Source: an uncultured Acholeplasmataceae bacterium (lineage in GTDB: Bacteria; Bacillota_I; Bacilli_A; Acholeplasmatales; Acholeplasmataceae). Taken from it: DNA of 64,000 bases. The notes under the pieces were generated by a model. It searched no databases. It was not told where the DNA came from and worked only from the letters and a program-made list of their open reading frames with translations. Made by a program: the position numbers and the translations under genes. Location of the stretch: positions 1,225 through 65,224 of the forward strand of contig CAUTQZ010000006.1 of assembly GCA_963540875.1 (NCBI GenBank), given 5' to 3'. Within the stretch, counting starts at the first letter, position 1. Every line of letters begins with the position of its first letter. Of this stretch, positions 11,666 to 54,775 are shown in pieces.

Positions 11666-11718
11666 AATATCCTCTCTATATTTTGATAAATTAGCATTTT
11701 TTTATATAATATATTTGC

Positions 11719-11790: not shown

Positions 11791-11795
11791 TTTTT

Positions 11796-14156: not shown

Positions 14157-14165
14157 ATTTCACCT

Positions 14166-21377: not shown

Positions 21378-21378
21378 T

Positions 21379-23124: not shown

Positions 23125-23419
23125 TACTCTCATCTCCTTTAATAGCTTTTATTTTGTTTGCTAGTCCTAAATCAAGTACTCCTATAACTTTAGGAGGATT
23201 ATCCTTATATACTTTTAATAATATATTATTATCTATTATTAAATAGTCTATTAAGTAGTAGTTAGCCTTATCGCTAAATTTTTTAATTGTATTACTACTA
23301 GCATCACTTGATATAAGCACTAGTTTTACTGCTTTAGTTTTTATTTTTTCTAAAACTTTATCAGATCCACTAATAACTAGTCCTGCTTTCCTAGCTAGTC
23401 CTAAGTAGTTTTGGATCAT
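23117..23419 (-). CDS. ylxQ: L7Ae-family RNA-binding protein YlxQ
   Basis: 100 aa with LGLARKAGLVISG...VKLVLISSDAS. Sits between nusA and infB as in Bacillus. Confidence 0.8.
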   Translation of the reverse strand: MIQNYLGLARKAGLVISGSDKVLEKIKTKAVKLVLISSDASSNTIKKFSDKANYYLIDYLIIDNNILLKVYKDNPPKVIGVLDLGLANKIKAIKGDESNG

Positions 23420-26537: not shown

Positions 26538-26608
26538 AGCAGGTGATGGGAATCGAACCCACACTATTAGCTTGGGAAGCTAAAGTTCTACCACTAAACT
26601 ACACCTGC
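26538..26608 (-). tRNA. tRNA-Gly (CCC), no encoded CCA
   Basis: Hand-folded from the minus strand. Acceptor GCAGGTG/CACCTGC with discriminator T. D arm GTTT-AGTGGTA-GAAC. Anticodon arm TTAGC-TTCCCAA-GCTAA. T arm GTGGG-TTCGATT-CCCAT. Confidence 0.9.
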
Positions 26609-26710: not shown

Positions 26711-29302
26711 TTATTTTAAAGTAATACTAATAACCGTATTTTTTACTAAGCTAAAAGTATAACACTGTGCATTTTTATCGTATTCTGCTTTTTTTGTTTT
26801 ATCGCTTGTATAGTATACTGCTTTAATCTTACTAGCATATTCAGGCTTAATATAAACATATACTGTAGTACCTTCAAAATGCATATCTTTAATACTTGGT
26901 ATTATTTCTTCAATATATTTACTAGACTCAATATCACCAATTTTAATTTTTGCAAGATAACTAATACCATAATCTACGGTCGTATTTTTAGAGACAATAA
27001 ATTTTGCTTCATATTTTTCGTTAACCTCTACTTGATTATTATTAATATTAAGACGATGAATCGCTGTTTTATCTTCTTTACCAAATGCATCTAAAATTGG
27101 TTTAAATTTAACTGTTAACTCAGTACCACCTGAAATTTGTGATATATCTAATACTTTATCACCATTAGGCAAAGTAATAGATTCAATATATTTTGAGTAA
27201 TTAGAATTATTTAAACCTGCTGTATTATCACCAAGATTTGAAAAAGTTAAACTATAGGTTAATACCTTAGCCTTAATTCTTAACTCATAATCTTTTAACA
27301 GTTTGAAATCAAATCTGTATACACGATAACTTACCTGCTCAGGAGTTGTAAGAACATCTTTTGATATATCTTTAACTTCACTATATTCTGGAAGAATAGA
27401 GCTTCCATAATATATTTTTTCAGTATTATCTTCTTTGTTATATAAAGAAAGTTCTTCTAATTCATAAAATTGTGGTAGCTTAATTTTAGCTTCTAATTTA
27501 GAGTTTTTATTATATATATTATATTCTAAATTACCATCATATTTTTTATTGCTTAATGTTATAGTATTACTAGGCTTAACGTTATTAATTAGTTTTTCGT
27601 TATTAACATAAAGAAATTTTGCTTCTTGTGCTTCACTAAAAAATTTAGTATCACTATCTATAGAAAATAATAACTCATTATTTTTCTCAAAATGAATTGT
27701 TGTTAATTCTTTTCTAAATACAATAATTCTACGGTCATTTTTTTCTGTTTTTTTAACTTTAAAAATGCTTCCACATAAATATTTTTTTTCAGGGCTCCAC
27801 AGCTCTTCACTACCATTTGAAGTGATGTGATAAATAGAAATTGAATTAGGGATTAATGATTTAACATCATCATTTTCTGCACTTAGCTGGTATTCATTAT
27901 TATCTTCTAATACTGAAACATTACAAAAAGTATGATTGCTACAATCTAATTTAATAAATTTATTAATTGTTGAGGTTTCATTTGAAGTTTCTTGCTCTTT
28001 GGTAATAATTATTTCATCATATTTATTTTTAACTGTTTTTAATCCGTAATCTTGATAATTTATCGAATCTATTTTATGGCCTGTTTTTGAAAATAAACGA
28101 AAAGTAAATTCTTTAGTATCTTGATTAAAATAGCTGGGGTGATACAAAAGTTTTTTTCCTTTTGCTAAATCGTATTGTGCAACATCAGATAAAATATTAT
28201 AATTATTAGTATTAGTAAATGTTATAACATATTGCTTTTCTTCGCTAGTTCCAAATTCTAATTTTTTAACTAAATTAGCAAGCTTTTCAAATTTATCTGC
28301 AGGAAATCCACTAGTCATTGATTTTAATTCATTATATATATTTTGTGCTTCAGAAATTATTTCGATAGATTTTGATGGGTCAATTCGTAAAATTCCAATT
28401 TCCTTACTTACTTTATCTACTGGAATATCTAATGAATAAAGTGTTGACGGAAGCAAAGCAATTGCCATTTGATTCATTACATCTGTAACATTTACCGCAC
28501 TTATATATAGCTCTTTAGAGATATTAATCACTGAGCCTGTAGCTTTAATTTTTATTCCTTTTTCACCATTTAAATAAAGAATGCTATCTTTGTTATCCTT
28601 AGGTTTTACTAATAAGCGAGTATTAATTACTAACTCATTAAAATTAGGCGTTTTACCATTTAAGTCAGTAAAAGTAAACTGATCTAGAATATTTCCTAAA
28701 AAAGATAATTTTATTTTTTTATCAATAAGTTGTTGAGTAGCTTTTATTTTACTAGCTTCATTTATAGTTAAACTATTTACTATAATTTCATCCTTATCAG
28801 TTGAAAGTACTTGATCTAATTTTTTATTATTTAATAAAACATCTACTAAATTATAGCTTGGTGCAGCGATTACTTTTAAACTTCCACTGCTTCCTTTTGA
28901 TAAAAGAAATTCATGCCCTAATAAGGGCTTTGCTTCGTTATTTAGCGTAAAATAAAAATTAGTACCTTTAAAACTAGTCATTTGAACTAAAACTAAATTA
29001 GAATCTAATTTTGCTTTTCCTTTATCTAGTGCGATATTATCAACTAATGTTTTTAATTGAGCTAAATACTTTTTATCTTTTTTTGCTTTTGGAAGTAGTT
29101 CTTCAATTTCTGATCTTAAATCTTTTGAACCTTTAGCAAGTAAGTAATTGCTAGGAACATTATCTACTGATAAATGTTCATTAATTATTACTGATTTATC
29201 TAAAAGTTGCTCAGCTTTTTTAATTGTTTTAGATCCACTACATCCACTTAAAATAAAAATTAAACTTGTAAATGTGAAAATTAAAAATAAATATTTTTTC
29301 AT
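26711..29302 (-). CDS. Large lipoprotein of unknown function (863 aa), last gene of glycan cassette A
   Basis: Lipobox FTSLIFILSGC. Lys/Asn-rich with many short beta-strand-like alternating segments. SD GGAGGAAATAATG. Begins 9 nt after the MalG-like permease gene. Confidence 0.7.
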   Translation of the reverse strand: MKKYLFLIFTFTSLIFILSGCSGSKTIKKAEQLLDKSVIINEHLSVDNVPSNYLLAKGSKDLRSEIEELLPKAKKDKKYLAQLKTLVDNIALDKGKAKLDSNLVLVQMTSFKGTNFYFTLNNEAKPLLGHEFLLSKGSSGSLKVIAAPSYNLVDVLLNNKKLDQVLSTDKDEIIVNSLTINEASKIKATQQLIDKKIKLSFLGNILDQFTFTDLNGKTPNFNELVINTRLLVKPKDNKDSILYLNGEKGIKIKATGSVINISKELYISAVNVTDVMNQMAIALLPSTLYSLDIPVDKVSKEIGILRIDPSKSIEIISEAQNIYNELKSMTSGFPADKFEKLANLVKKLEFGTSEEKQYVITFTNTNNYNILSDVAQYDLAKGKKLLYHPSYFNQDTKEFTFRLFSKTGHKIDSINYQDYGLKTVKNKYDEIIITKEQETSNETSTINKFIKLDCSNHTFCNVSVLEDNNEYQLSAENDDVKSLIPNSISIYHITSNGSEELWSPEKKYLCGSIFKVKKTEKNDRRIIVFRKELTTIHFEKNNELLFSIDSDTKFFSEAQEAKFLYVNNEKLINNVKPSNTITLSNKKYDGNLEYNIYNKNSKLEAKIKLPQFYELEELSLYNKEDNTEKIYYGSSILPEYSEVKDISKDVLTTPEQVSYRVYRFDFKLLKDYELRIKAKVLTYSLTFSNLGDNTAGLNNSNYSKYIESITLPNGDKVLDISQISGGTELTVKFKPILDAFGKEDKTAIHRLNINNNQVEVNEKYEAKFIVSKNTTVDYGISYLAKIKIGDIESSKYIEEIIPSIKDMHFEGTTVYVYIKPEYASKIKAVYYTSDKTKKAEYDKNAQCYTFSLVKNTVISITLK

Positions 29303-29311
29303 TATTTCCTC

Positions 29312-30259
29312 CTATCCTACAATTCCTGAATTTTCAAAATTCTGTACAAAACTTTTTTGAATAATAAAATATAAAAGTAAAACTGGTCCGATAAATAATA
29401 AATTAGTAGCACCCGTAACAGATGGCATATAATACTTATTCATAATATTATGTCCTGTTATATCTACAAATATTCTGCTTGCGCTTCCTTCACTTACGCT
29501 ACCCATCTTATTTGCTAATAGTTGTGCATTCCTTGCAAAGAACCCAGAATAGAATGCATCACCATAATTCCAAACAAAAGCAAATACTGCTACTGTAATA
29601 ATGATTGTTTTAGCATTAGGTAAAATTACTAAAAAGAAAGTTTTAACAAATCCACAGCCATCCATTTTGGCAGCTTCATATAATTCATTAGGTAAGCCTT
29701 GATAAAATTGTTTAAATAAATATATAAATAATCCTTGTTTAATTCCTTGCCCGAAAATAGCTAGTAAATAAATAGAAAATTCTGACCCATACAGACCATT
29801 TGGACCAAATGCTTTCATATTTTTAAAGAATAAATAAAGTGGCATTGCGATAATTGATGGTGGAATAATTATTGTTATTAAAACAAAGAGAAAAAATACT
29901 CGTGATACTCTTTTGTCCATAATATGTAAACCATATCCTGCGCACGCTCCAATAGCAACCTGGATTACCATAATAACAAAGGCATATAGAAGCGTTCTAG
30001 GTAAACTTACTTTATAGTTTAATAACTCACTTCCCACATTAAAAGCAAGTCCACTTACCCTCCATGGGATCCATCTTGAATTAGCTGCAGTAATATATTC
30101 ATACTTTGTAATGGCAGGTACTAGGGCTCTTATTAAAGGAAATAAAATTACAAATGATAAACCAATAATTAAAATAGTTCTAATTATAACAACTAAAGTT
30201 TTATTTCGTGCTTTAATATATTTATAATTTACATTTTTTTTATTTTCTCTTTTTATCAT
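29312..30259 (-). CDS. Carbohydrate ABC transporter permease (MalG-like, CUT1), copy A
   Basis: EAA loop ELYEAAKMDGCGFVKTFFLVILP and 6 TM segments. C-terminal LLLYFIIQKSFVQNFENSGIVG is identical to copy B. Confidence 0.9.
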   Translation of the reverse strand: MIKRENKKNVNYKYIKARNKTLVVIIRTILIIGLSFVILFPLIRALVPAITKYEYITAANSRWIPWRVSGLAFNVGSELLNYKVSLPRTLLYAFVIMVIQVAIGACAGYGLHIMDKRVSRVFFLFVLITIIIPPSIIAMPLYLFFKNMKAFGPNGLYGSEFSIYLLAIFGQGIKQGLFIYLFKQFYQGLPNELYEAAKMDGCGFVKTFFLVILPNAKTIIITVAVFAFVWNYGDAFYSGFFARNAQLLANKMGSVSEGSASRIFVDITGHNIMNKYYMPSVTGATNLLFIGPVLLLYFIIQKSFVQNFENSGIVG

Positions 30260-31193
30260 AATGACCTCCTCTTTGGATAAGTTTTAATAAAATCATAATA
30301 ATAAATAGCATTCCTAGGGTAAGTGCTGTAAAAATAACAGATATTACGGCTTTAATTTCAATTGAAAATTGATTTTGATTATCAATTATTAAAAGGGTTA
30401 ATTTAGAACGATATAGCAAATCAATTAAAGTGTATATAATAACTGATGATAAAATTGGGAAAATAGATGGGATGGTAATTTTAAAAAATTGTTCATATTT
30501 ATTAGCACCCTCTATATCAGCAACTTCGTATAGAGTTGGATTTATACTTTGAATAGCAGCTAAAAAAATTAAAATTTGTACACCTGATAGCATTAGAATA
30601 TTAAACACACCACTAACTGCAGACTGTAAAAAAGTTAAAATACTAACTGGAATTTCTGATGACATAAATATTTTCTTTATATCAAAAAAACGATAAAATG
30701 CTGAATCTGATAAAAGCCCGCTGGCATCACTTCCTGCTGTAGCAAATGAATTATAAACGCCAGGTAATGCAAAAATAATTGGTAGAAAAAAGATAGTTCT
30801 TGCTACTCCTCTACCTCTAAATTTTTGATTTAATAAAACTGCTATTAATAATGAAAAAACTGTTATTAAAGGAATCATTAAAGCCGTATCTGCAATAGAT
30901 GATAGCAAAAACTCAGTAAATGTATGTTTTTTCCCTTCTAATTCTATGATCTGATTACTAAATAAATTACTATAATTTTTCCATCCATTATTACTAAAAG
31001 TTAATCCCCCTTTAGCACCAAATTCTATTTTATTAAATGAATAATAAATAGTAGTGACAAAAGGAGTTATAAAAAATACTGAAAAACCAATTAACCACGG
31101 AAGAAAAAAGATAAAAGACCAAAACTGATCAATTGTTTTTTGTTTTAATTTAATTTTTTTATTATTTTTTAGTTTTAATTGCATTACTCTCAC
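30240..31193 (-). CDS. Sugar ABC transporter permease (MalF-like, CUT1), copy A
   Basis: EAA loop LYEVADIEGANKYEQFFKITIPSIFP and multiple TM segments. Start is GTG at 31193 or ATG 9 nt downstream. Confidence 0.9.
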   Translation of the reverse strand: MRVMQLKLKNNKKIKLKQKTIDQFWSFIFFLPWLIGFSVFFITPFVTTIYYSFNKIEFGAKGGLTFSNNGWKNYSNLFSNQIIELEGKKHTFTEFLLSSIADTALMIPLITVFSLLIAVLLNQKFRGRGVARTIFFLPIIFALPGVYNSFATAGSDASGLLSDSAFYRFFDIKKIFMSSEIPVSILTFLQSAVSGVFNILMLSGVQILIFLAAIQSINPTLYEVADIEGANKYEQFFKITIPSIFPILSSVIIYTLIDLLYRSKLTLLIIDNQNQFSIEIKAVISVIFTALTLGMLFIIMILLKLIQRGGHYDKKRK

Positions 31194-33823
31194 TTAATTA
31201 TCAAATAACTATATGGTGGTACTTGATAAGAATTTAGTTCTGTATCTGTATAATTTTTATGAATTCCATCTAAATTAAATAAAACTTTTTTTATAGAACC
31301 TTCTTTTTGATATGTTACTAAAAATAAATTAGGTTCTAGTAAAGTATGCTCCATAATATTATTTCCAACTATTTTTTGATAATCTTTAATTTTATTATAA
31401 AATTCATTAATAACTTCTTTATTATGATTAAAATAAGTATTATAGTACTTATTATCTTCTAGGGCATTGCGAGTAATTGTAGTATCTTTTCCAGTTATAT
31501 TAAATGTTGGATAAGTATTAGTTAAAAGAGCATAAGTTAAATAAAAATTACTTGGTTTGTTTTCGATATCTTCATTTGTAGCTGGTAGCATTACTTTATA
31601 TTTAAACGAATATAATAACGGCAAAAACGGTACTTGGGCTTTGTATAAGGGATTACCTGAATAACTTAATTGCATATCATAAATTAAATCTGCACTCTTA
31701 GCATAATCATAATAAGGATTTTTTAATGCAAGGTTTTGCCTTTTAGCACTTCTTAAACTATTTAATACTATTTGCTTAATAAGTTCAGGCGCTAGCTTAT
31801 GATTACTAAAATCACTATAAACTAAATTTCCTAAATCATCTACTGCAATAGAACTAAATTGATTATATTTATTATAGTATTGCATAACACTTAATAGTTT
31901 ATCAGGATTTAACAAGTAATATTTTTGACCAGTATATGCGTTTTCCTTAGTATTAAATTCATTTAATGCTCTTGTTTCACCAGATAAAACTTGAATACCA
32001 TCATATTTATTACGAAAACTTCCTTTGTTTTCACTATAAGTTTTAATTAAAGAATTTATAAAATAATAATTAGGATTATCTCTTTCTATTTGAGTGGTAT
32101 TTTCAAAATCTCTTAACTTATATGAAGGTATTTGATTATATAAACCTCCTTGTTGCCAGTTAGTAAAAAAGAAAGTTTTTGAAGTATTTTTTAGTTGTTC
32201 TTCTATTTTTTTAAACTCAGTACTACTAGTAAGAAGATGTTGTTCGTTAGTAGGAACTCCAAATGACGAGTTAGTCTTATTTATGGATTTAATAATATTA
32301 ATAGGTACTTCACCATCATAGTAATGATTAGCACGCACTTTATTAGTTATTTTGGCATATGTTTTAGCATAATCATAATAACTAACTTCTTTATTATCAT
32401 CTCTTTTAATAAGTTTATACCCAACACTAAATCTATCTTTATTATATTCAGGAGAATATGCATCGGTTTTAGAATCACCTAGAAAATAACGGTCGCCTTT
32501 AAATTTTAGTGTAAACTCAGGATATAAACATCTAAAATCAATTGAACTATTATTACCATATTCAACTACTTTAGAGCAATATAGCTTAGTCTGAAAGGCC
32601 CCGTTAGTAATATGCATAAGGGTGGCGTGATTAGTTGTTCCACTTTTTTGATTAATACCAATAAGAGGTACTCTGATAGTAGTTTTAGCGGTATCTCCGT
32701 TTTGTTTATATAAATAAAAATCTTGATCGTATACTCTACCGCTCCAGTGTTCGATTTTATTAGTTGAAGCAATAGCGCCAGTACCATCTGGAAGTAATAG
32801 CTCGTTGTTATTATTTTCAACTGCTAACGCCCCTGGATTTAATTTAATACTACTAATAACCCATCTTCCGCCATCAATAGAAGGACTATCTTGCTTTATC
32901 TGTTCAGTTAAAACAGTAGTATAAAATTGGTTATCTTTAATGTAGTAAGCAATTGGGATAATAAACTCATATTTGTTAATAACTTTACCAACATTAAATT
33001 TTAATAAACTTTTATCATTTAATTTATATATTTCATACCAAATTTTAAAAACATTATTTATATGATATATTCTATTAGTTAGTGGATAGCCAAAAGTATA
33101 CTTACTATTTTTATTAGCTTTACCCTCATCTCGGGTATAGCAAGTTTCTAATGAATTTATTAAGCTAGCGCTATCAAATGGTGAAGCTTTTTCTTTAATT
33201 AGTTTTTTAAGACTTGCTAATTCATTTGGACTTAGTAAATGTGGTATTAAAGAACCATCTCTTGGATCTGAGATAACTTTATAATTTATAATAAAACCTT
33301 TATGAGTAGTTAGTTCCTTAACTTTTTCAACTGAAACAAAACGAGATTTACCATTTATTGTAATAAGGGAGCCAGTATCAGTTGAAAAGCAGGCTTGCAA
33401 AACAAATGGTGCATATATGTCTTCTTTTTTTCTAAGATGAAATTGATGCAGATCATCAAGTGGGGCTAATTTATTTCTAACGTATTCTGATGGATATAAA
33501 CTTAGATTTAATCCCTTATTTTTAAATGAAATATTATGAATTTCATTTTCCCAACTAATTTGTGAATCACCCTCGGTTTTACTTATCAGATGATTCTTAG
33601 CAAGAGTTTTATAATTAATATCTTTACCACTGAATATTTCATATGCTATCCGATTAGGTATAATAGAAGTTAATTTATATTTGAAACTTAGTGAAATAAA
33701 TACTAAAGAAAATATAAGTAAAATTATCCATAAGTAAACAGCAACTTTATAAACTTTTTTTAATTTATAAAATTTTTTATAATTATTAACAATTAAATTT
33801 TTAACTGTAGTTTGTATGTTCAC
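31190..33823 (-). CDS. 877-aa single-pass membrane protein with a large extracytoplasmic domain (possibly DUF5696-like), copy A
   Basis: N-terminal TM VAVYLWIILLIFSLVFISLSF. Blocks conserved with the paralog at 54776..57358: IWYEIYKLNDKSLLKFN, SSIKLNP, LLPDGTGAI, FFFTNWQQGGLYNQIP, IAVDDLGN. The family name is a recollection and is not verified. Confidence 0.55.
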   Translation of the reverse strand: MNIQTTVKNLIVNNYKKFYKLKKVYKVAVYLWIILLIFSLVFISLSFKYKLTSIIPNRIAYEIFSGKDINYKTLAKNHLISKTEGDSQISWENEIHNISFKNKGLNLSLYPSEYVRNKLAPLDDLHQFHLRKKEDIYAPFVLQACFSTDTGSLITINGKSRFVSVEKVKELTTHKGFIINYKVISDPRDGSLIPHLLSPNELASLKKLIKEKASPFDSASLINSLETCYTRDEGKANKNSKYTFGYPLTNRIYHINNVFKIWYEIYKLNDKSLLKFNVGKVINKYEFIIPIAYYIKDNQFYTTVLTEQIKQDSPSIDGGRWVISSIKLNPGALAVENNNNELLLPDGTGAIASTNKIEHWSGRVYDQDFYLYKQNGDTAKTTIRVPLIGINQKSGTTNHATLMHITNGAFQTKLYCSKVVEYGNNSSIDFRCLYPEFTLKFKGDRYFLGDSKTDAYSPEYNKDRFSVGYKLIKRDDNKEVSYYDYAKTYAKITNKVRANHYYDGEVPINIIKSINKTNSSFGVPTNEQHLLTSSTEFKKIEEQLKNTSKTFFFTNWQQGGLYNQIPSYKLRDFENTTQIERDNPNYYFINSLIKTYSENKGSFRNKYDGIQVLSGETRALNEFNTKENAYTGQKYYLLNPDKLLSVMQYYNKYNQFSSIAVDDLGNLVYSDFSNHKLAPELIKQIVLNSLRSAKRQNLALKNPYYDYAKSADLIYDMQLSYSGNPLYKAQVPFLPLLYSFKYKVMLPATNEDIENKPSNFYLTYALLTNTYPTFNITGKDTTITRNALEDNKYYNTYFNHNKEVINEFYNKIKDYQKIVGNNIMEHTLLEPNLFLVTYQKEGSIKKVLFNLDGIHKNYTDTELNSYQVPPYSYLIIK

Positions 33824-34467
33824 TTCTTAATTCTAAATCCTATCTCTTCAAAAAATTGACCAATAAAGCCAAATGATAATTGTAGTAAATGAAAAAATAA
33901 AAAGATAACATATAGTAAAACTAGAAAGGCAAATAAAGTTGTTATTATCATCAAAACATTTTTAAAAAATCCGTATTCATGAATAACTACTAAACCAATC
34001 ATTAATACAATTGCACCAATAGTATAGCCTATATAATTACCTACCTGTAAAAGAGCATAATCACTTTTGGTTATTAAATTTGATAAAATAACTGTTATAA
34101 AACGAAATAGTATAACTGCAAATAATGAATAACATAATACTAGATATATCTTTTTTAAAGAGCCATTACCATCAAATAGAGTCGTTACTAAATAATTAGC
34201 TACAACTAGTAATAAAAGGGGCAATATACTACTTATAAATAAAAGGGGGGCATTAAGTAATCTAAAATCATTATTATTTATTATAAAGCCTGTAAAACGA
34301 TATTCAAATATTCTTAATATACCATATAAAAATAGCCATAAAGTTGCAGATAATAAGTCTCCTTCTTTATTATCAGATAATTGGTCCCATTTTTTAAACG
34401 GAAAGACAATAATTGATTGTGGAAAAATTATTAAATTATGAAAAAAATTATTAATTTTTTGCTTCAT
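33820..34467 (-). CDS. Yip1-like 5-TM membrane protein, copy A
   Basis: 215 aa with about 5 hydrophobic helices and an N-terminal IIFPQSIIVFPFKKWDQL motif typical of bacterial Yip1/DUF1282 proteins. It has 4-nt overlaps with both neighbours. Confidence 0.55.
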   Translation of the reverse strand: MKQKINNFFHNLIIFPQSIIVFPFKKWDQLSDNKEGDLLSATLWLFLYGILRIFEYRFTGFIINNNDFRLLNAPLLFISSILPLLLLVVANYLVTTLFDGNGSLKKIYLVLCYSLFAVILFRFITVILSNLITKSDYALLQVGNYIGYTIGAIVLMIGLVVIHEYGFFKNVLMIITTLFAFLVLLYVIFLFFHLLQLSFGFIGQFFEEIGFRIKK

Positions 34468-36239
34468 TTTTTCCTTTTTTTATCTTTTATAAATTTTTTT
34501 AATGATACATTAAACACTATAGCAAAAACTATAATAGCACTAATTAGAAATATGCTTTCTTTAATTACATTATTACGATATATTTCATAAGCCTCAGCAT
34601 AGCCGCTTTTTGAATGACCTAATTTATATTCTCTGCAAGCATTTTTATAGTCTCCTCTTAAATAGTAAATCTTACCAAGACCAATATGTGCATAATAACT
34701 ATTTGAATTATACTTAATCATTTCATTAAATAATTCATAGGATTTATCGTAATCACCTGATGCGTAATTTTTACTACTAAGATTAATAAGATCACCATAT
34801 TTCGTAGGAGTAATTATCTTTAAATAAAATGAAGAGCTTCCTTTTCTGTCTGTTAAAACGATGTTATCTCCTAAAAACCTCATAGTTTGAACATCAGAAA
34901 AGTTTTCTTTTGAACTACCTTTTTTACCGTAAACAAATAAAAGCTCACCGTTATTATTATAACTAAAAATACGTCCATTTTCTTTGTCATAAGTAATAAA
35001 TGTTCCATAAGTAGAAACATCAATTAACGATAATTTTGATTGCTTATGACCTTTTTCATTAGCTTTTTTATAATCACCCGTAATACTTTTATGTTTACTT
35101 TTTAAAATGTTTTCGCCTTTTGCATTAAATCTTTGAATTGGAGTATTTTTACTTGTAGCAGTAGCCGTATAAATAAATCCATTTTCATCTACTGCTAAAT
35201 CACTAAAATTTTCCTGTACTTTCTTATCTTTTTGATCTAAGAGATTTTTATTAGCAAGTTTACGCCAAAATTTTTCAGCAAGCGATAATTCTATTTTATT
35301 TGAGCCAACAAACTTAATGAATGTTCCATCATGGCGGTCAAAACCAAGTAATCCTAGCTTAGAACCTTCAGAAATAACGTATAAAATATTATGTTGCGGA
35401 TTAGTAGCAATTCTAACTGGTTTAAATGGAGTTTTATAATTTTCATCTAATATATGAGCTTCACTTGCTTTTAAACCAAAAGTTCTATCAAAGGTAAGTT
35501 TATAATCCTCACTAGTAAAATCATACATATAAATAGGATACTCTTGTCTTTTTGATTGTTCTAAGTTATATTTATATTTATCGTATTCTTCTTTTGGATA
35601 ATTATCATTTTTAACTTCTTGTTCTAAATCTTTTAGTAATTGTTTTTCAATTGCTAAAGTATCATCGCTAACTAAACTATCAACTTTAATAAGTACTTTT
35701 TTATCGATAGGATTTATGATATCATAATTATAAAGTAGGCGCACAACATTTGAAGATAGATATAATTTATGTTCACTAAATGCTAATGCTAATGCTTCTT
35801 TTGGTATATTTGCATCAGTTTTACTACTAAAATGATTTTTAAGTTCATATTGTTTAATAGTTAAATTATAAGTAATAACTAATATTAAAAGGCATTTATT
35901 ATGGGTAAAACTTGCTTCACTTTGAGCGTCCTCTTCTAAATTTAGGGCCATGAATATATTGTTATTACTAGTTGCTACATATAAATTAGTTATATTATAA
36001 CTAAGTGAGGTTTTTACACCCATAATAATTTCTGTTCTATCTTTAAATTCAGTTGGCAAAAAAGTAGTGATATCACGATTTAATAGGGTGTAATAGCTTT
36101 CAGGAGCATTAATTTTTTGATTATACGGATCATAATCATAGGTAATAGCTTTAACCTTACTAAAACAAACTCCTGCAATAAAGCTTAAAAATATAACCAC
36201 TAATAAAATTTTAAAAGTTTTATAATATTTTAATTTCAT
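34464..36239 (-). CDS. Bitopic protein: signal anchor, beta-propeller-like (NHL-like) region, TPR repeats, C-terminal TM; copy A
   Basis: N-terminal TM ILLVVIFLSFIAGVCF. Propeller-like strands LYVISEGSKLGLLGFDRHDGTFIKFVG, GFIYTATATS..IQRFNAKGE, NGELLFVYGKKG. TPR-like YASGDYDKSYELFNEMIKYNSNSYYAHIGLGKIYYLRGDYKNACREY. C-terminal TM IFLISAIIVFAIVFNV plus a KKRKK tail. Confidence 0.55.
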   Translation of the reverse strand: MKLKYYKTFKILLVVIFLSFIAGVCFSKVKAITYDYDPYNQKINAPESYYTLLNRDITTFLPTEFKDRTEIIMGVKTSLSYNITNLYVATSNNNIFMALNLEEDAQSEASFTHNKCLLILVITYNLTIKQYELKNHFSSKTDANIPKEALALAFSEHKLYLSSNVVRLLYNYDIINPIDKKVLIKVDSLVSDDTLAIEKQLLKDLEQEVKNDNYPKEEYDKYKYNLEQSKRQEYPIYMYDFTSEDYKLTFDRTFGLKASEAHILDENYKTPFKPVRIATNPQHNILYVISEGSKLGLLGFDRHDGTFIKFVGSNKIELSLAEKFWRKLANKNLLDQKDKKVQENFSDLAVDENGFIYTATATSKNTPIQRFNAKGENILKSKHKSITGDYKKANEKGHKQSKLSLIDVSTYGTFITYDKENGRIFSYNNNGELLFVYGKKGSSKENFSDVQTMRFLGDNIVLTDRKGSSSFYLKIITPTKYGDLINLSSKNYASGDYDKSYELFNEMIKYNSNSYYAHIGLGKIYYLRGDYKNACREYKLGHSKSGYAEAYEIYRNNVIKESIFLISAIIVFAIVFNVSLKKFIKDKKRKK

Positions 36240-39217
36240 TTAGTAATTTGAAATTCATTCCTTTTCTTTTCTAGTTCTACATCAATTTCTTTCATATATT
36301 TATAAAGAGTAGCTAGTGGATCCTCGCCATCAACTGCAGCAAGGAATGCATAATTAAATTGTCTTGTTGTCATATAGCCACCTGGTAGTTGAGGAATTCC
36401 TCTAGTTCTTTTTCGGGCTTGCTCAATAATTTTAATATCTTGACCTGGCCAAGGAAGTAGTTGAGCAACATTTTTATTTGCTGTTGCATATCTAGCTGCT
36501 GCTCCAACAATTACTTCTAGCTCTCTACCGTATTCTAATTGTATATCATCAGATAACCACCATTTTAAAAACTCCCAAGCAACATCTTTTTGTTTAGAAC
36601 TATTTAAAATAATACTTGCTTCTTTTGAGTTTGAGGTTATCTGATAATCTTTTTTAGGATTACTTATATTTTCATCACGAACAAATGTTGGGACATTAGC
36701 AATTTCCCACTTACCTGAAATTTCAGGAGCAAATACTGAAAGAGAGTTATATACATCATAAGAAATTATTCCTGCTGGCATTTCTCCAGAACGAAAACGG
36801 TTAATAAAATTAGCTTGTTTAGGTATACCTTTATTAGAGAAAAAATCTGTATATTCACGGAAAGCTTTTTTACTATTTGAATTTAATAATGCTGATTTAG
36901 TTAAATCTTCATTATAAAACGAGCCCCCCATTTGATATAAAATACTACTAAATAAACCAGTTTGAACTATATTGCTTCCTGCCTGTATATTTGCTTGTCC
37001 ACTACTACCTAGAGGAGATTCAATAAAGAAATTTAGTTTTTTATTTTGCAGTACTCCTATTATATGTTCAAGCTCTGATCTTTTCATATATTCTTTATTA
37101 ACTGTTAATCCTAATTGATCAAATATATCTTTACGATAAAAAAACACAGGGAATGTTTGTGTCTCTGGCAGAGCATAAATACCATTTTGATATTTAAATG
37201 GGACTAATGCTGAGTCGTTAAACTTATCTGCAATAGTATTAAAATCACTAAATTCAGCTAAATTACATAACGCTTTACGGAAAGCCAAATCAATAGGGAC
37301 ACTTTCAGGCACCATTAGTGCTACATCAGGACCTCTTCCAGAAGTTAGTGCTTTTAGTAAAGCTTGGCTGTTAACAATATCTATTACAATATTTAATTTT
37401 TTAATTTTTTCATTACCCGGATTATCAACTAATCGTTTTAATATTTGAGCTTGATCTCTTCCAGCTAAAACCCATACATTGAGTGGTTTTGAGTTAGTCT
37501 TTTTTTGTTTTACAGAAAATGATTTAAAAAATTTAGTAAATTCAAAATGAATATTTTCAAAAACATTAGTTCTAACTCTTTTTACTTGATGTTTAGGACT
37601 ATGAAAGAAAAACTTATCAACTGTTAACGGTTGTTCTTTTTCTTGAATTAACCAACTGCCCATACTAGTAATATTAGATTCTAAAGATTCTAGCTCGCTA
37701 ACAATACGGTTTGGGTATTCAATAAAAGTTTTTAATTGACGGATAACAGTAAGAATTGAAGAAGTTCTAGAACGAGAATTATTTACAAGCAAATGATAAT
37801 GTGCAACTAAAAGTTCTAAATTATTTATTATATTTTGAATTCTTTTTTCAAATAAAGGAACCTGTTTTTTTATCTCATATGTTTTAAATTCGTCATAATC
37901 AGAAACAACCATTTTTACTTCTAGATATAACTTATTTAATTTTTCTATACTATCTTGAACAGTTAGTAACAAATCACTTATAGTAGCGAGCGATGATTTA
38001 ATTCTGATTATATTTTTACCTTTTTCTAATGGAAATAAATAAGGTTCTTTTCTAGTACCAACCAGAAAAGTAGAAAAATAAGCATTATCTACAAAAGGTA
38101 TATAAGAAGCCTCTGCAAAAGGAACTTTACTATTAATAGTAATTTCTCGGGTTGAAAATGTTCCTTGCTTTAATGATTGTTTGGCATATAATGAAAATGC
38201 ATATAGACCTTTTTTGGGAGCATTAATCTCATATTCTACCCAATATCCTGGTAAACGCCACGAATATACTCCCATAACATTTAATTTAACATCTCTTCCG
38301 TTATAGTATGGAGTAATTTTGCTTGATGTAGTATCTGCTTGTGGTATTAGTACTGGTGATGACTTTAAGGTCATCTTTTCTCCTTCAAAGACGATTTCAT
38401 CTTTACCATCATATATTTCATATCCATTTGATAACCACATTTTTTTTGCATCGCTATAACTTTCTGGTAAACAAGATTTTTTAAAGCTTATATTATGAAT
38501 TATCATAGGTTCTCTGATACCTATTATCTCTAATGTTTGGTTTAATCCTTTATCTAGATTAAACATATATGGTCTTGGATGACCACATGTAAAATCACGC
38601 AGGAAAGTAGTTTCTTTTTTTGAAACTTCAACTTGCTTGCTTCTTATCTCATCACCAAGTTCATCAGTAGTTATTGGTCCTGCGTCTTTAAAAAACCTCG
38701 TTAATTTAATGTGTTCAGCCTCCTTAAACGGAGTCTTATTATTAATTTTAATGCTTCTTTCAATCTCACCTGATTTAGAAATAAATTGCTTTCTTTCTTC
38801 AGGTACTAACGTATCTACTTGTGTTTCATTTCCAACTAATGGCGTATAAGTAATTTCAATAGCATAAGCTCCAGCTTCTTCAACATCAAAGTTAAAAACA
38901 ACTGCTGTGTTATCACCTTGGAAAATACTACCATTATGCGAGTCTATTATAGCTCCTTTTTTAGGGAAGTGATCGTTATATGATAAGCTAATTTTTTTAT
39001 CTGGTTTATTAGTATTAATTTTATATTCGTTATACGATAAAATTGTGTTATTATTTACAGAATAACTATTATCAAAACTTAATTTTTTTTGATATTTATT
39101 AATATAGCCTGTAGTAATTATTTTATTTGCATTTACGCAAGAAAAAATAACTAATATCATAATAGTTATTAGTACAATTAGTAATGATGATTTAATTATA
39201 ATTTTTCGTATCTTCAT
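36236..39217 (-). CDS. 993-aa membrane-anchored chimera: two CBM-like beta-sandwich segments, a helical segment, and a C-terminal family-1 solute-binding domain; copy A
   Basis: N-terminal TM LLIVLITIMILVIFSC. CBM-like patterns FDVEEAGAYAIEITY...IKINNKTPFKEAEHIKLTRFF and WVEYEINAPKKGLYAFSLYAK...ITINSKVPFAEASYIPF. SBP-like C-half LNVWVLAGRDQAQ...GEMPAGIISYDVYN...ELEVIVGAAARY...GIPQLPGGY. Confidence 0.65.
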   Translation of the reverse strand: MKIRKIIIKSSLLIVLITIMILVIFSCVNANKIITTGYINKYQKKLSFDNSYSVNNNTILSYNEYKINTNKPDKKISLSYNDHFPKKGAIIDSHNGSIFQGDNTAVVFNFDVEEAGAYAIEITYTPLVGNETQVDTLVPEERKQFISKSGEIERSIKINNKTPFKEAEHIKLTRFFKDAGPITTDELGDEIRSKQVEVSKKETTFLRDFTCGHPRPYMFNLDKGLNQTLEIIGIREPMIIHNISFKKSCLPESYSDAKKMWLSNGYEIYDGKDEIVFEGEKMTLKSSPVLIPQADTTSSKITPYYNGRDVKLNVMGVYSWRLPGYWVEYEINAPKKGLYAFSLYAKQSLKQGTFSTREITINSKVPFAEASYIPFVDNAYFSTFLVGTRKEPYLFPLEKGKNIIRIKSSLATISDLLLTVQDSIEKLNKLYLEVKMVVSDYDEFKTYEIKKQVPLFEKRIQNIINNLELLVAHYHLLVNNSRSRTSSILTVIRQLKTFIEYPNRIVSELESLESNITSMGSWLIQEKEQPLTVDKFFFHSPKHQVKRVRTNVFENIHFEFTKFFKSFSVKQKKTNSKPLNVWVLAGRDQAQILKRLVDNPGNEKIKKLNIVIDIVNSQALLKALTSGRGPDVALMVPESVPIDLAFRKALCNLAEFSDFNTIADKFNDSALVPFKYQNGIYALPETQTFPVFFYRKDIFDQLGLTVNKEYMKRSELEHIIGVLQNKKLNFFIESPLGSSGQANIQAGSNIVQTGLFSSILYQMGGSFYNEDLTKSALLNSNSKKAFREYTDFFSNKGIPKQANFINRFRSGEMPAGIISYDVYNSLSVFAPEISGKWEIANVPTFVRDENISNPKKDYQITSNSKEASIILNSSKQKDVAWEFLKWWLSDDIQLEYGRELEVIVGAAARYATANKNVAQLLPWPGQDIKIIEQARKRTRGIPQLPGGYMTTRQFNYAFLAAVDGEDPLATLYKYMKEIDVELEKKRNEFQITK

Positions 39218-39230
39218 ATTTATATAATAA

Positions 39231-39264
39231 GCAAACTTTCTTAATATAAATTAAGAAAGTTTGC
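39231..39264 (-). promoter_or_regulatory. Perfect 15-bp intercistronic hairpin between the SBP and the downstream cassette genes
   Basis: GCAAACTTTCTTAAT-ATAA-ATTAAGAAAGTTTGC, followed on the minus strand by TTATTATATAAAT and the ATG at 39217. No clear SD lies between the hairpin and the ATG. Confidence 0.7.
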
Positions 39265-39278
39265 AATTTTCTATTAAA

Positions 39279-41093
39279 TTATTTATTTTCTTCCTCAATT
39301 TTAATCAAGCTTTTTAGTAATTTATCAGTAATTTCACTTACTTTATCACTAGCTTTTTTAATTTCTTGAGTAAAGTCTTTATCATCAATAGCATAACGAT
39401 ACATAGCATCTAAAACTGGTCTAGTTGATCCGTATTTTTCCATTTCATTAGGAATTATTTTATTTGGATTAGTATATGATTCGAATATCTTAGTAAATAA
39501 TCCAAGTTCGCTGCTATCTGCATTATTGTTATTAATCATATGTTCAACAACCCATTTTTCAGCATTAATAGTACCTTTTTTAGCTAAATCAATACACATA
39601 TCACGATAACTTGTGCCTTCGGGGTATTGTGCTTTAAAAAACGCTTCTCTATCTGGATGATTTGCAAAATAAGTTTTAATCTCATATGCTGCTTTAGCTC
39701 TACCATGATCACCATTAACATTAACTAATTCAAGCATTATTTGAGTACTTAATTTAGAGTTTTTAGCTTTACTTAATACAAGCATATCACCAGTAGCACC
39801 TAAAACTCTTGCTTTTTCTTTACCACGATTTCCTGGCATATCAGCAGGAAATGGCAGAATACCTACTTTAAAATCGCCATCTTTTTTGATGTTATTACTA
39901 CCTAAAATATAATCATGGAACATCCATGGGGCAGCCATTGCAAAAGCAGTACCTTCTACTTCAAAACATCTTGCAGCATTATGTGGGTTTGGAGAATCTG
40001 CTACCCATTTTTGCCAGCAACCTTCATATACAATATTTTTAGTTCCATCTGGATTAGGGTCTACATTATGTGTCATTTCTAACTCTTTTGATGGTTGATT
40101 TATTCCACCACGGCCTTTATCACCATTCATTAACTTCCACTCATCAATTACTTCTTTTAATTCCTTTAAGCCATCTCCGTTTAACATAGACTCCGTAACA
40201 GCATGGCCTCTTCTCATAGCAAGCATATCAAAAATATAATATCCACCATAAAAACCAAATGGTTTAGCACGATCATAAAAAGAAGCTTTAGGCTTATTAT
40301 ATTTATCTGAAGTTTTCATATAATTATTAATTTTTTCGCCCATCTTTTTCATTTCAGTATAGGTCCATTGTCCTTTTTCCCATAAATAAGCTGGGTCTTC
40401 ACAACCTGCTTCTTTTATTAAAGAACGATTGTAAATAAAACAATTAAATGATACTCCTGCACCGCCACCATTAGATCTTGACGAACCAAAAGTATTATAG
40501 TGAAAATTACCCTCACTATCTTTTACTTTAAGATAAGAATTAATGAACTGACCAGCACCAGAAACATTTTTCTTAATAAATTCATTATCGCCAACAACTT
40601 CTTCTTTTTCATTAAGAGAAGCTACTTCTTTATTTAGTCCAGTTAATAAATTATGTGAAACTAAATCAATTAACTCTTGTTGAGAATCAATACGTGCGAT
40701 AACTGAATGTTCATTATTAGCAGCCACTTCCTGTTGTAAACATGCTACTTTATTTTCATTTGTGTATTCTTCAAATACAATATTTGCTTTATATTTTTCA
40801 GAAACCATATTGTATTTATTTTGCATTTTATAACGAAAAGTTTTGTCGCTAGGACTAAAATCCTTATGCCATGGGTCATCTTCATTTAGATTTTTAGTTA
40901 GTATTTTAACAGTTGGCCAGCTACTATTTGATAGTCTATCAACTGCAGTATATATCTTAGTTTGGCCTGCTTCTTCGAACTCTGATGCTGGATCTAATAA
41001 ACCGTTATTTCCAGGATTTGGTTTCGGATTAGTACAGGCAAACAATGTAATTATTGTAAAAATAATTAAAACAACTAGTAATATTTTTTTCAT
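39279..41093 (-). CDS. Extracellular solute-binding lipoprotein (604 aa, enlarged family-1 SBP), copy A
   Basis: Lipobox IFTIITLFAC. SBP-like blocks LWEKGQWTYTEMKKM, AARCFEVEGTAFAMAAPWMFHDYIL and GATGDMLVLSK. SD AAAGGA. Confidence 0.75.
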   Translation of the reverse strand: MKKILLVVLIIFTIITLFACTNPKPNPGNNGLLDPASEFEEAGQTKIYTAVDRLSNSSWPTVKILTKNLNEDDPWHKDFSPSDKTFRYKMQNKYNMVSEKYKANIVFEEYTNENKVACLQQEVAANNEHSVIARIDSQQELIDLVSHNLLTGLNKEVASLNEKEEVVGDNEFIKKNVSGAGQFINSYLKVKDSEGNFHYNTFGSSRSNGGGAGVSFNCFIYNRSLIKEAGCEDPAYLWEKGQWTYTEMKKMGEKINNYMKTSDKYNKPKASFYDRAKPFGFYGGYYIFDMLAMRRGHAVTESMLNGDGLKELKEVIDEWKLMNGDKGRGGINQPSKELEMTHNVDPNPDGTKNIVYEGCWQKWVADSPNPHNAARCFEVEGTAFAMAAPWMFHDYILGSNNIKKDGDFKVGILPFPADMPGNRGKEKARVLGATGDMLVLSKAKNSKLSTQIMLELVNVNGDHGRAKAAYEIKTYFANHPDREAFFKAQYPEGTSYRDMCIDLAKKGTINAEKWVVEHMINNNNADSSELGLFTKIFESYTNPNKIIPNEMEKYGSTRPVLDAMYRYAIDDKDFTQEIKKASDKVSEITDKLLKSLIKIEEENK

Positions 41094-41118: not shown

Positions 41119-41136
41119 AGGGCACCTAGGTGCCCT
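41119..41136. promoter_or_regulatory. Perfect 18-nt GC-rich palindrome AGGGCACCTAGGTGCCCT
   Basis: Self-complementary, checked base by base. It sits in the 63-nt gap between the GH85 stop (41157) and the SBP start (41093). No U-tract follows on the coding strand. Confidence 0.6.
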
Positions 41137-41156: not shown

Positions 41157-44100
41157 TTAAGGGAGTGCTACTGTATAATCAGTAAAATCCGCATTTGGCA
41201 TTTTACCTTCTTTATAGAACTTTAAGCTAAATTTATTCTTACGCGGATTAGAAAAATCACTAGGAATATAGATACGTCTTATCTCAACTATTCCTTCGCT
41301 ATTTGCAACGAATGTATCTACTCTTTTGTACGGATTAGTTTGTTTTAGTGTTACAACCGTACCTGGAGCTAAATTTCTAATTGTTGCTTTTACAAAATAT
41401 CCATCAGCAGCTCCACGATTATAACGATTAGAATATTTTAATCTAGTTATCATTATATCACTTTGATTTGCTACTGGAGTATCAGGAATTGAACCATCAT
41501 TATAAGGTAAATATTCTATTTCAGTAAACGAACTTTCATTAAGTTTTTCATGTTTTGCAGTGTAGTATAGAATGCCACCTTCTTTTTTTAGTGCTACATT
41601 TTCTAATGTTCTTTTTGCCATTTTAGAATTGCCAAATCCATTATGTTTAGGTAGTATTCCTATAACAGAACCATCTACTTTATCATAAAATTTTAACTCA
41701 ACATTTTTTGGATATTCTACTTCAATATCGCCAGTATTTTCTGATTTACGGTGAACTGTATATTTTATAGAACTAACATTCGTATAAGGAGAGCCTAAAA
41801 CATTATATAATTGCCAATCAAATAAAGTCATACTGCCCCAATTCTGTCCTGCAGATGTTTCAGTTATTTTTAATAACCAATATTTCCCTTTATACTTTTT
41901 ATCAAACTCAAATACTATCTCATTATTTTTTTTAGGATTTGTTATAGTTGCACACTTAGTAAATTTAGGACTACTTCCATTATGATATACGTCATCGCAA
42001 TCTACTTTAGATATTTCTTCTTCAGTACAGAATATTTCAAATTTTTTGGAAGCGTATCCCCATACTTCATCTATTGAATCTCCAAAATTTGTAGTAGTAA
42101 CACCACCAGCACAAATACGCGTAAAACCTGCTTCTCTTGCTTCTGGTAGTTTTACACAAACATAATCACCATATGATCCAACACAAGTCCACTTTGATCC
42201 CCAATCTCCTTTACCATCAACTGCTTTGTTTACATTTTCAGTAGTATTACCAAATTTTGAGTAAGCAAATACTTCACCATCTTTAAATAGATTATTACCT
42301 GCGTTAAATTCTTTTAATTTTGGCGTTTTTTTCCATACTTGCTCAGTAATATTTGATTCTAAATGTGTTAAACGCTCACCGTTTTCATTTACTGGAATAC
42401 TAGTTAAATAGACTGATTGAGCACCGTTTGTAGGAAACATATTATGAACATATGCATAACTATTTGAAGAAACTTTTAATAATTTCTTTTGATTTGTCAA
42501 ATTATCGTGCATCCAAATTTCATAGAATTTAACTGATTTTTGAGTAGGAATATGAACTCTAGCTTCAGCACTATTATTTCTATAATAAATATTTTCAACA
42601 ATTGGATTTCCTAATTTAGTAACTTTTTTAGCATTACCTAACATTTGAAGTTGACCAATGTTTAATGTATATGCGCCACTTATGTTATTAGTTACTTTAA
42701 TACCTACACCATTAATTAGTTCTCCACGAGGAATTATGCACTCAGCAATAGTCCATCCATTTTTAGTTTCAACTTTATTTAAAGTAATATTTTCAGTCCA
42801 CTCATATTTATTTTGGCCACGAGATATTAGTGCTTGAATAGTAGCATTATCTCCTGTTTCTTTGTAGGTTAAGCGGAACTTAATATCTTTTTGCATTCTT
42901 AGACGGGTAGAGTATAATTTTAATTCATTATACTTTTCACTCTCAACATTACCTTTTAATGCTAGAGAATTACCACCATTCCAAGCAGTTTCAAAATCAT
43001 ATCCAGCTCTTAATTTTTTAGATGCGTTACTATCAACCATCCAAGTCCAAGTAGGGGTAATTTCTTGTAAACTACGATTTGTCCATTCTTCATCAATTTC
43101 TAATTTGCCATCAATAAAGAATTTTTTTCCATGGCCAGTATTAAAGGTTGAATTAAACGGAAAACGATTAATAACTGATTTATCTAGAAGGTATTGAGAC
43201 ATACCAAATTTATCACCGTTATTTCTTGGATCGTATTCATATTCTCCATCTTTAGTAATACGAGATGACCAAAAATAATTTTCTAATTCATGGAATTGTT
43301 CACCAGTTGTTGCTTCACCAACAGTTGAATTTAAACAGTATGCTCCAATTGATGCTTTTAATTTACCATTAGCGTCTTTTAACCAATCAAATTGATAATC
43401 AGTATTTAAACCGTATTGTTGGAAATTTGATGCAATATATACATCATATGGACTACGATTATATCTTTTAGCTAATCTATTACTCTCATCAACTGTAGAA
43501 CTACTCCAATTATAATTTGTAAAGAAATCATCAATTAAATATGGTTTTAGAGCTTTTTTATTTTTTAATTCTTGATCTTCACCAAACCAACCAACATTTG
43601 AACCATTTAATCCATTACCATAATTAACTCCCCCATCAGTAAAAGTCATAGAGTCATACCAGTTGAAAACTAGTTCAGGATAATTTAATCTAGCATATCT
43701 AAGCGCATTTTTTAGACCTTGTAAATGCGCATAACACCCACTAGTTTCTTGGTTAAAAAAATATCCATCAAAGCCATAAAAACGAGCAATTTGAGCCAAT
43801 TTATCTATTGTAGGGAATCTTCCGTTTAGATCAGTCTTAACTAATTTTCTCATTTCTTGAACGCCTGCATCATTAGGACCATATGGGAAAAATAATCCTG
43901 CAGTAACAGCAACTCCATTACGATGTGCCATATCAATAGCATCAGCTGTAGGACATACTAAAATTCCCTTACCCGCATCTTCAGCCCAACCAACCATGCT
44001 ATCAAGATATTGCCAATGAGTAAATGCATAGTTTTGGAAACTATTATGTCCTTGAGCTCCACCATTCATAGTTAGGAAGGCGCAGTGTTGGAACTTAGCT

Positions 44101-44396: not shown

Positions 44397-44409
44397 TAAA
44401 TAACTCCTT

Positions 44410-47661: not shown

Positions 47662-47681
47662 TTGACATACCTCTTTTCTAA

Positions 47682-50882: not shown

Positions 50883-50928
50883 ATTATTTAATGCCTCCTT
50901 TATTTTTTTGTGTATTACTTGCACCTAT

Positions 50929-54771: not shown

Positions 54772-54775
54772 CGCT

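Follow-up and report, generated by a model that had tools for sequence, protein, structure and literature searches.

Gram-positive gut and soil bacteria import complex glycans through ATP-binding cassette (ABC) importers. In those of the CUT1 type, such as MalEFGK2 and the MsmX-dependent systems of Bacillus subtilis, permeases resembling MalF and MalG and carrying EAA loops are served by a family-1 lipoprotein binding protein and an unlinked ATPase. Here, we analysed a window of 64,000 nucleotides from an uncultured Acholeplasmataceae bacterium (assembly GCA_963540875.1, contig CAUTQZ010000006.1), in which seven minus-strand open reading frames (ORFs) at 29312..41093 form a cassette, copy A, that has these features in common with CUT1 importers. 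Yet the cassette adds four membrane-tethered proteins, including a giant second binding protein, and usually comes with two permease pairs. We think it probable that the region encodes a CUT1-type carbohydrate importer in which a conserved extracytoplasmic module, tethered to the membrane, serves the permease pair.

Several described systems resemble the cassette in part. To our knowledge, the concept of Gram-positive polysaccharide utilisation loci (gpPULs) includes no NHL/Yip1/DUF5696 module. What these loci share with the cassette is the co-location of a regulator, an ABC transporter and glycoside hydrolases (GH), with carbohydrate-active enzymes (CAZymes) varying round a transporter core; the word Yip1 has no occurrence in their description (Sheridan et al. 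2016, PMC5320581). The Sus-like systems of Bacteroidota follow a common logic of surface capture, limited processing and a dedicated transporter, in which the core is conserved while the substrate-specific parts vary, and an initial annotation of this DNA, made from the letters alone, had seen a Sus-like logic in the cassette. As an analogy this stands, but there is no homology: the cassette has no outer membrane, TonB-dependent transporter or SusD to work with, and no SusC or SusD domain was found in the scanned genes of the window (the listed ORFs of at least 120 amino acids (aa), minus two short plus-strand ones). The ABC system YknWXYZ of B. subtilis is said, in work of Yamada and colleagues from 2012, to include a Yip1 subunit, YknW. 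A Yip1-domain membrane protein in a bacterial ABC system is thus common to both, but YknWXYZ is an exporter with a membrane-fusion protein, whereas the cassette has importer-type permeases and binding proteins, and they share no other parts. The N-glycan transporter of Streptococcus pneumoniae linked to a GH85 enzyme (EndoD) has its GH85 neighbour in common with the cassette of the window. A full-text search of the literature, in which subscription journals are mostly uncovered, returned nothing for DUF5696, for PF18952, or for a YIP1 family protein together with a carbohydrate ABC permease, and nothing pertinent for related terms. Apparently, the module of NHL, Yip1, DUF5696 and giant proteins belongs to no described importer that we found, and represents a widespread, conserved and undescribed variant of the ABC sugar importer.

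Layout of the cassette and its permeases

The elements of copy A are the following.

39279..41093, minus strand: binding-protein lipoprotein, 604 aa, lipobox LFAC, divergent CUT1-family solute-binding protein
39231..39264, minus strand: 15-bp stem-loop in the gap between the binding-protein and giant genes
36236..39217, minus strand: giant protein, 993 aa, transmembrane (TM)-anchored chimera of CBM35-like, helical and binding-protein parts
34464..36239, minus strand: NHL-TPR protein, 591 aa, with signal or anchor, six-bladed propeller, TPR and C-terminal TM helix
33820..34467, minus strand: Yip1-domain protein, 215 aa, five TM segments
31190..33823, minus strand: DUF5696 protein, 877 aa, TM-anchored, predicted GH129/GH101-like fold
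30240..31193, minus strand: MalF/UgpA-like permease (permF), 317 aa
29312..30259, minus strand: MalG/UgpE-like permease (permG), 315 aa

Coordinates and sizes were checked against the translated ORFs, and the gene order, sizes and strand of the initial annotation agree with them exactly. Four junctions are start/stop overlaps of four nucleotides, ATGA at 36236..36239 and 34464..34467 and GTGA at 33820..33823 and 31190..31193, all where they had been claimed, and the permF and permG genes share an overlap of 20 nt. The seven genes had been taken as one translationally coupled unit; the overlaps bear out the coupling, but not the extent of seven genes, as the unit is probably larger and takes in a lipoprotein gene downstream and a pair of GH85 genes upstream. 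The hairpin described after the binding-protein gene was recovered as well (15 bp, dG −18.6 kcal/mol, z = −7.0 against shuffles). By stabilising or attenuating the mRNA, it probably raises the output of the binding protein. It has no counterpart in copy B, the second cassette of the window, or in the metagenomic loci L001 and L002 introduced below, where the binding-protein and giant genes abut; hence, it is a local expression feature and not a part of the system.

The calls of a MalF-like and a MalG-like permease hold. The permF protein matches UgpA and MalF in NCBIfam, scores 19.4 bits against Pfam BPD_transp_1, which is below the cut-off of 26.4, and has an EAA-like loop that reads EVADIEG...IP in translation. 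The permG protein matches UgpE and MalG, scores 50.9 bits against BPD_transp_1 and carries the EAA loop EAAKMDG...LP.

Occurrence and conservation in other genomes

Relatives of the cassette were gathered as 87 loci: three metagenomic (L001-L003), 80 from genomes (L004-L083) and four from other subfamilies (L084-L087). Retrieving homologues needed an alignment of normal composition: the AT-rich window protein and mixed alignments gave 3 and 6 proteins, a genome scan with peptide patterns of the window clade found no relative, an alignment of 37 sequences contained no searchable conserved stretch, and tblastn against plasmids gave no match. An exhaustive profile search returned 1784 DUF5696 clusters at 50% identity, and one conserved peptide pattern picked out at least 600 stretches in GTDB species genomes, at least 585 of which encode a DUF5696 relative. 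Represented among the best 80 loci, those from genomes, are Paenibacillus, Cohnella, Bacillus-like genera, Lachnospiraceae, Clostridium, Halanaerobiaceae and metagenome-assembled genomes of Bacillota. Two loci each were found in Paenibacillus terrigena, Paenibacillus sp. J5C2022, Paenibacillus aquistagni, Paenibacillus sp. GCM10027626, Cohnella luojiensis, Cohnella sp. CFH 77786 and Bacillus sp. FJAT-28004.

The core, which consists of NHL, Yip1, DUF5696 and the permease pair downstream, is present in 87 of the 87 loci as far as the contigs reach, and the giant in nearly all. By hidden Markov models (HMMs) seeded with the window proteins alone, all 80 genome loci have Yip1, 79 have NHL-TPR and 76 the giant, in a fixed gene order, and iterated profiles run on these and the three metagenomic loci gave similar counts. 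The accessory genes thus keep company with CUT1 permeases outside this genome, a permease pair standing directly downstream, and the neighbourhoods that the initial annotation mentioned for Paenibacillus and Clostridia do exist in GTDB species genomes. We rejected chance ORFs, as the cassette is duplicated in the window and its core recurs in 87 loci, and also a defence or mobile element (no such domains) and a signalling system (no cytoplasmic output domains).

In the commonest arrangement, the binding-protein gene comes first and is followed by the giant, permease pair 1, NHL-TPR (to which Yip1 may be fused), DUF5696 and permease pair 2. Among the 80 genome loci, permF has a median score of 179 bits to the pair downstream of DUF5696 (pair 2) against 17 to the upstream one (pair 1), and permG 165 against 42. 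By these scores, the window permeases are the orthologues of pair 2, which elsewhere lies directly behind DUF5696, so that the seven-gene form found in the window and in L001-L003 is a reduced version of a nine-gene canonical cassette, from which pair 1 was lost. The three metagenomic loci, at 30% identity, have a gene order identical to that of the window, with GH85 upstream in L001 and L002 and GH38 downstream in L002.

The flanks differ from genome to genome. In Paenibacillus sp. JDR-2 (L084; locus at CP001656 4,852,406-4,874,958) the cassette has a GH10 gene on either side; GH10, GH43 and an esterase accompany it in L085, with two histidine-kinase/AraC response-regulator pairs nearby; L086 has a sulfatase and a DUF4434 protein beside the cassette; and L087, which lacks the giant and pair 1, adjoins a pectate-lyase-like gene and GH95. 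As these four keep the same core, L087 even without the giant and pair 1, the minimal invariant core is NHL-TPR, Yip1, DUF5696 and pair 2. Over all loci the flanking enzymes range over GH10, GH43, GH53, GH9, GH38, sulfatase and GH95, and AraC-family and GntR/LacI-type regulators and histidine kinases stand in the flanks; in L029 a DUF4855/F5_F8_type_C protein is encoded beside the cassette. The neighbours in L086 and L029 mean that the substrates may extend beyond plant cell-wall glycans.

The components also differ in their rates of change. Identity to the 80 genome loci is 36% for permF, 31% for permG, 28% each for NHL-TPR and Yip1, and 21% for DUF5696, which BLASTP detects in 32 of them. 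The lipoprotein evolves fastest of all and is hardly detectable by BLASTP in these loci. The most conserved part is the binding-protein domain of the giant (39% identity to homologues in these loci, mostly Paenibacillus). Since the lipoprotein and DUF5696 evolve fast and the flanking CAZymes vary, these are likely to be the substrate-specific parts; judged by conservation, the remaining parts (giant, NHL-TPR, Yip1 and permeases) have the look of a generic machine.

The accessory proteins and what they might do

The two binding proteins were identified at different distances. The 604-aa lipoprotein has no direct Pfam or PDB match, and a single-sequence search of the PDB came back empty. A seed HMM from copies A and B matches canonical binding proteins in 26 of the 80 genome loci (E<1e-5, best 4.9e-10), and the profile of the family finds CUT1 binding proteins, those like AbnE among them (6rjy, 8e-35). 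The giant has one N-terminal TM segment by hydropathy, then two beta-rich modules that resemble CBM35/CBM6, a helical stretch and, C-terminally, the binding-protein domain of CUT1 type. This agrees with its first description as a chimera of CBM-like, helical and binding-protein parts. Pfam places SBP_bac_1/8 at residues 606-898 (SBP_bac_1, 49.6 bits), and the profile matches Lin1841 (1.5e-21) and the CBM35 region of 5x7g (4.6e-5) in the PDB. The CBM-like modules are more elusive: a weak similarity to CBM_35 or Golvesin_C was seen in 8-10 of 26 homologues, and an AlphaFold2 (AF2) model of the N-terminal half, based on the two window paralogues only, had a pLDDT of 38.8. A family-1 solute-binding protein, as in other CUT1 systems, was thus recognised in the giant and, through seed HMM and profile, in the lipoprotein. 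In the xylan-linked cassette of L085, a trailing binding protein of 635 aa (14359..16266) carries a CBM9 module.

The 591-aa protein has hydrophobic segments at its N- and C-termini (hydropathy). Its family profile matches TPR proteins and the NHL propellers of Pizza and PknD (2e-57 to 8e-31; 7.7e-31 for the PknD propeller 1rwi). Pfam NHL was found in 26 of 29 homologues, and 24 of the 29 also match the SGL/gluconolactonase family; the window protein itself has TPR matches and no direct Pfam NHL match. The 215-aa protein matches Pfam Yip1 (PF04893; cut-off 28.6) with 40.3 bits in copy A and 57.1 in copy B, and has five hydrophobic segments (hydropathy). The propeller-like, TPR and C-terminal TM parts of the one and the five-TM, Yip1-like nature of the other had both been called from the letters, and the calls are sound. 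We propose that the Yip1 protein is a membrane scaffold.

These proteins are naturally fused in other genomes. NHL-TPR and Yip1 occupy one ORF in 13 of 29 sampled homologues, and the fused protein (about 690 aa) occurs in roughly a third of the genome loci (e.g. L007, L010, L013); 26 loci share the most frequent of the fused gene orders, in which Yip1 has no ORF of its own. Another protein, P0019 (1032 aa), joins Yip1 (residues 11-179) to DUF5696 (408-1023). Taken with the start/stop overlaps and the permease pair that goes with the module, the fusions are evidence of the Rosetta-stone type, which suggests that NHL-TPR, Yip1 and DUF5696 meet in the membrane near the translocon and speaks for a physical complex. 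The four accessory proteins are predicted to face outward and to be tethered to the membrane, as had been supposed, which fits hydropathy and charge distribution. The surface platform imagined in the initial annotation gains from the NHL-Yip1 and Yip1-DUF5696 fusions; such a platform might capture and process glycans and hand them over to the permeases. Profile and fold searches place none of the accessory proteins in families outside glycan handling.

One might also see in Yip1, NHL-TPR and DUF5696 a module that controls the assembly, stability or opening of the transporter, as YknW reportedly does for the YknXYZ exporter, and that may sense a surface polymer instead of handling the transported substrate. 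Sensor domains outside the cell can be NHL propellers, as in PknD, TPR repeats are protein-protein interaction modules, and another bacterial ABC system reportedly has a Yip1 subunit in YknW; the conservation of NHL, Yip1 and the giant whatever the flanking CAZymes points the same way. But none of the four accessory proteins has a cytoplasmic signalling domain, the cassettes have separate regulators and histidine kinases encoded beside them, and DUF5696 diverges fast, as expected of a part in contact with the substrate. We regard such a controlling module as quite unlikely.

The 877-aa protein matches Pfam DUF5696 (PF18952; cut-off 25.6) with 169.7 bits in copy A and 190.4 in copy B and, as first noted, passes the membrane once, with an N-terminal TM segment (hydropathy). 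A single-sequence search of the PDB gave nothing, and matches came through profiles only: one of 82 sequences matches ZgGH129 (5opq, 4.3e-10; 8rzg, 3.6e-10) and NagBb (1e-4), in collinear alignments of three stretches for the former and two for the latter. NagBb is a GH129 alpha-N-acetylgalactosaminidase. The AF2 model (pLDDT 85, pTM 0.85) has the N-terminal beta-sandwich, (beta/alpha)8 barrel and C-terminal beta domain of GH129 and GH101, and Foldseek ranks NagBb first (1.5e-18, TM-score 0.65 on the target), followed by GH101 (about 6e-13) and then GH13, GH36, GH31 and GH97. The Pfam models of GH129 and GH101 matched none of 37 DUF5696 members at E<=0.1, the DUF5696 model alone matching, and sequence identity to these enzymes is about 10%. 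We regard DUF5696, as modelled, as a distant GH129/GH101-like protein that lies outside those families by sequence models. It has their overall multidomain fold in common, but unlike them it is TM-anchored and always encoded with Yip1, NHL and permeases, and the equivalent of the GH129 acid/base is not conserved. Four DUF5696 proteins of 1030-1201 aa (P0054, P0122, P0125, P0010) carry N-terminal extensions of 400-560 aa without Pfam match.

The fold raises the question of whether the genes simply encode independent, co-transcribed enzymes, DUF5696 being an anchored exo- or endo-glycosidase of a new GH129-related family and the NHL protein lactonase- or lyase-like, both acting ahead of an ordinary ABC importer, with neither complex nor hand-over. 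In the main, Paenibacillus-type family, D346 (of the PDGSGA motif), D368, E406, D671, D728 and E767 are each conserved in at least 90% of members, as one would expect of an enzyme, and the SGL/gluconolactonase matches of the NHL homologues fit equally well. Yet independent enzymes have no need for a Yip1 membrane protein, and both kinds of fusion, the invariably adjacent permease pair and the start/stop overlaps speak against independence. Moreover, neither the window clade nor other subfamilies retain the carboxylates presumed to be catalytic. We find this explanation unlikely.

The importer with its extracytoplasmic module, which we prefer, also has points against it. No ABC ATPase was found by domain scan in the cassette or the window, and an ATPase-like ORF lies within 10 kb in only 6 of 83 loci, never adjoining the cassette. 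Unlinked, shared ATPases are usual for CUT1 systems in Firmicutes, so that a missing ATPase does not exclude membership of CUT1. The giant usually adjoins permease pair 1, the one lost in the window lineage. The 80 genome loci were those that best matched a single query of Paenibacillus type and are thus no unbiased sample, the complex is deduced from fusions and synteny, and the whole case is built from sequence and structure prediction. Finally, in the window clade D728 is replaced by K, E767 by L or I and R679 by P, and the acid/base of NagBb, E478, corresponds, by spacing alone, to a conserved Asn at the end of beta5 (N702 in the window).

These last points bear on what DUF5696 does. NagBb has G and L at the positions of D728 and E767, so these two are not the GH129 catalytic pair; D671 varies (N, S or E) in related subfamilies. 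The nucleophile of NagBb, D435, falls, by spacing alone, at the end of beta4, in the family motif LRDLG (D663 in the window), a residue kept in the window clade and only partly across the family. Given the replaced carboxylates and the acid/base that is not conserved, processing by DUF5696 may not be catalytic. We would put the odds that typical members are hydrolases at roughly even, and at less than that for members from the window clade; binding of glycans without catalysis is a serious alternative.

Surroundings, substrate and possible mechanism

Further features of the window are these.

52925..64000, minus strand: copy B, a paralogous copy of the whole cassette, its binding-protein gene truncated by the window end
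41157..47688, minus strand: two tandem GH85 endo-beta-N-acetylglucosaminidase genes (Glyco_hydro_85 about 200 bits each, plus GH85_C)
41119..41136, no strand: 18-bp perfect GC-rich palindrome AGGGCACCTAGGTGCCCT, between the stop of GH85_1 and the start of the binding-protein gene
26711..29302, minus strand: orphan lipoprotein of 863 aa, probably encoded by an eighth gene of the unit, 9 nt behind permG, with the ribosome-binding site GGAGGA

Gene for gene, copies A and B are 63% identical for permG, 54% for permF, 50% for the giant, 48% for Yip1, 36% for NHL-TPR, 35% for the binding protein and 30% for DUF5696. Between them lie the two GH85 genes and the gene of a 1080-aa BspA-type LRR_5 protein (region 41157..50924), which overlaps GH85_2 by 7 nt. 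The GH85 paralogues are 42% identical and both have N-terminal hydrophobic segments. From 26.7 to 64 kb all genes are co-directional and the gaps short. GH85 enzymes in known cases release N-glycans from glycoproteins, and the pair is the likely source of the imported oligosaccharide. The GH85 neighbours here and in the closest relatives, one of which also has GH38, point to an N-glycan substrate: the cargo here is most likely N-glycans released from glycoproteins.

A cassette located wholly in the envelope might instead recycle or remodel the glycans of the cell's own envelope, and the GH129 and GH101 relatives of DUF5696 do act on glycoconjugates. But its neighbours degrade plant polysaccharides or host glycans and differ between genomes, its regulators are of catabolic type, and some genomes have more than one copy, the window itself having two. 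A role in the cell's own envelope is thus highly improbable, and we keep to the import of nutrients.

Each cassette copy is trailed, 9-11 nt behind, by a lipoprotein gene with a strong ribosome-binding site. The one behind copy B (609 aa, 51084..52913) stands in the same position as the 863-aa gene of copy A and is unrelated to it; neither has a Pfam or NCBIfam match, or a homologue in loci L001-L083. A tRNA gene (26538..26608) after the 863-aa gene marks the end of the copy-A unit. The palindrome AGGGCACCTAGGTGCCCT occurs once in the window, with 0 matches expected, in surroundings of 28% GC; it is not followed by a T-tract and could be an operator or an RNA hairpin.

Directly downstream of the copy-A unit, past the tRNA gene, lies a gene for an AAA_14/DUF4143 ATPase (25093..26376), and a GH2 gene is found further downstream. 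At 9002..16574 an 887-aa protein without Pfam match is encoded, with an LRR_5 and Listeria-Bacteroides-repeat surface protein and a GH2 enzyme nearby; these proteins may belong to the same host-glycan lifestyle. All ORFs of at least 120 aa lie on the minus strand, except for two short plus-strand ones inside larger genes. Housekeeping proteins encoded in 19237..23133 and elsewhere in the window are unusually short (IF-2 584 aa, PriA 600 aa, NusA 380 aa), and the standard set of stop codons is used. With the base composition of the window, about 28% G+C, these traits suggest a reduced genome of a Bacillota or Mollicutes-like organism.

The import route might be pictured as follows. Secreted or anchored endo-enzymes, here the two GH85, would free oligosaccharides at the cell surface. 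The Yip1 scaffold would hold NHL-TPR and the TM-anchored DUF5696 beside the dedicated permease pair, and DUF5696 would bind the glycan and possibly trim it. The fast-evolving lipoprotein would give substrate specificity, its output in copy A probably raised by the hairpin, and the conserved giant might serve as a second, generic receptor or as a tether. An unlinked ATPase of the MsmX/MalK type would power transport into the cell.

In hundreds of species, the cassette equips an importer with four conserved surface proteins and a dedicated pair of permeases, next to xylanases, galactanases, mannosidases or sulfatases, and here to N-glycan-releasing GH85 enzymes. If its parts form one machine, monoderm bacteria would have in it a general means of glycan capture that has so far gone undescribed; DUF5696 would gain a function and a Yip1 protein a first role in a bacterial importer, and the question could be put to cultivable Paenibacillus strains. 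The coupling of surface hydrolysis to oligosaccharide import was called an "unidentified mechanism" by those who studied Paenibacillus JDR-2 (PMC4765114). More tentatively, as a conjecture to which we give somewhat less than even chances, the Yip1 scaffold might dock a GH129-like enzyme or pseudo-enzyme, the NHL propeller and the giant receptor onto the permease pair, in a Bacillota-wide supercomplex that couples surface depolymerisation to uptake. If true, such a supercomplex would be the monoderm counterpart of the utilisome of Bacteroidota, and it would explain how JDR-2 links hydrolysis at its surface to the rapid import of oligosaccharides, the question raised by that strain (PMC4765114).

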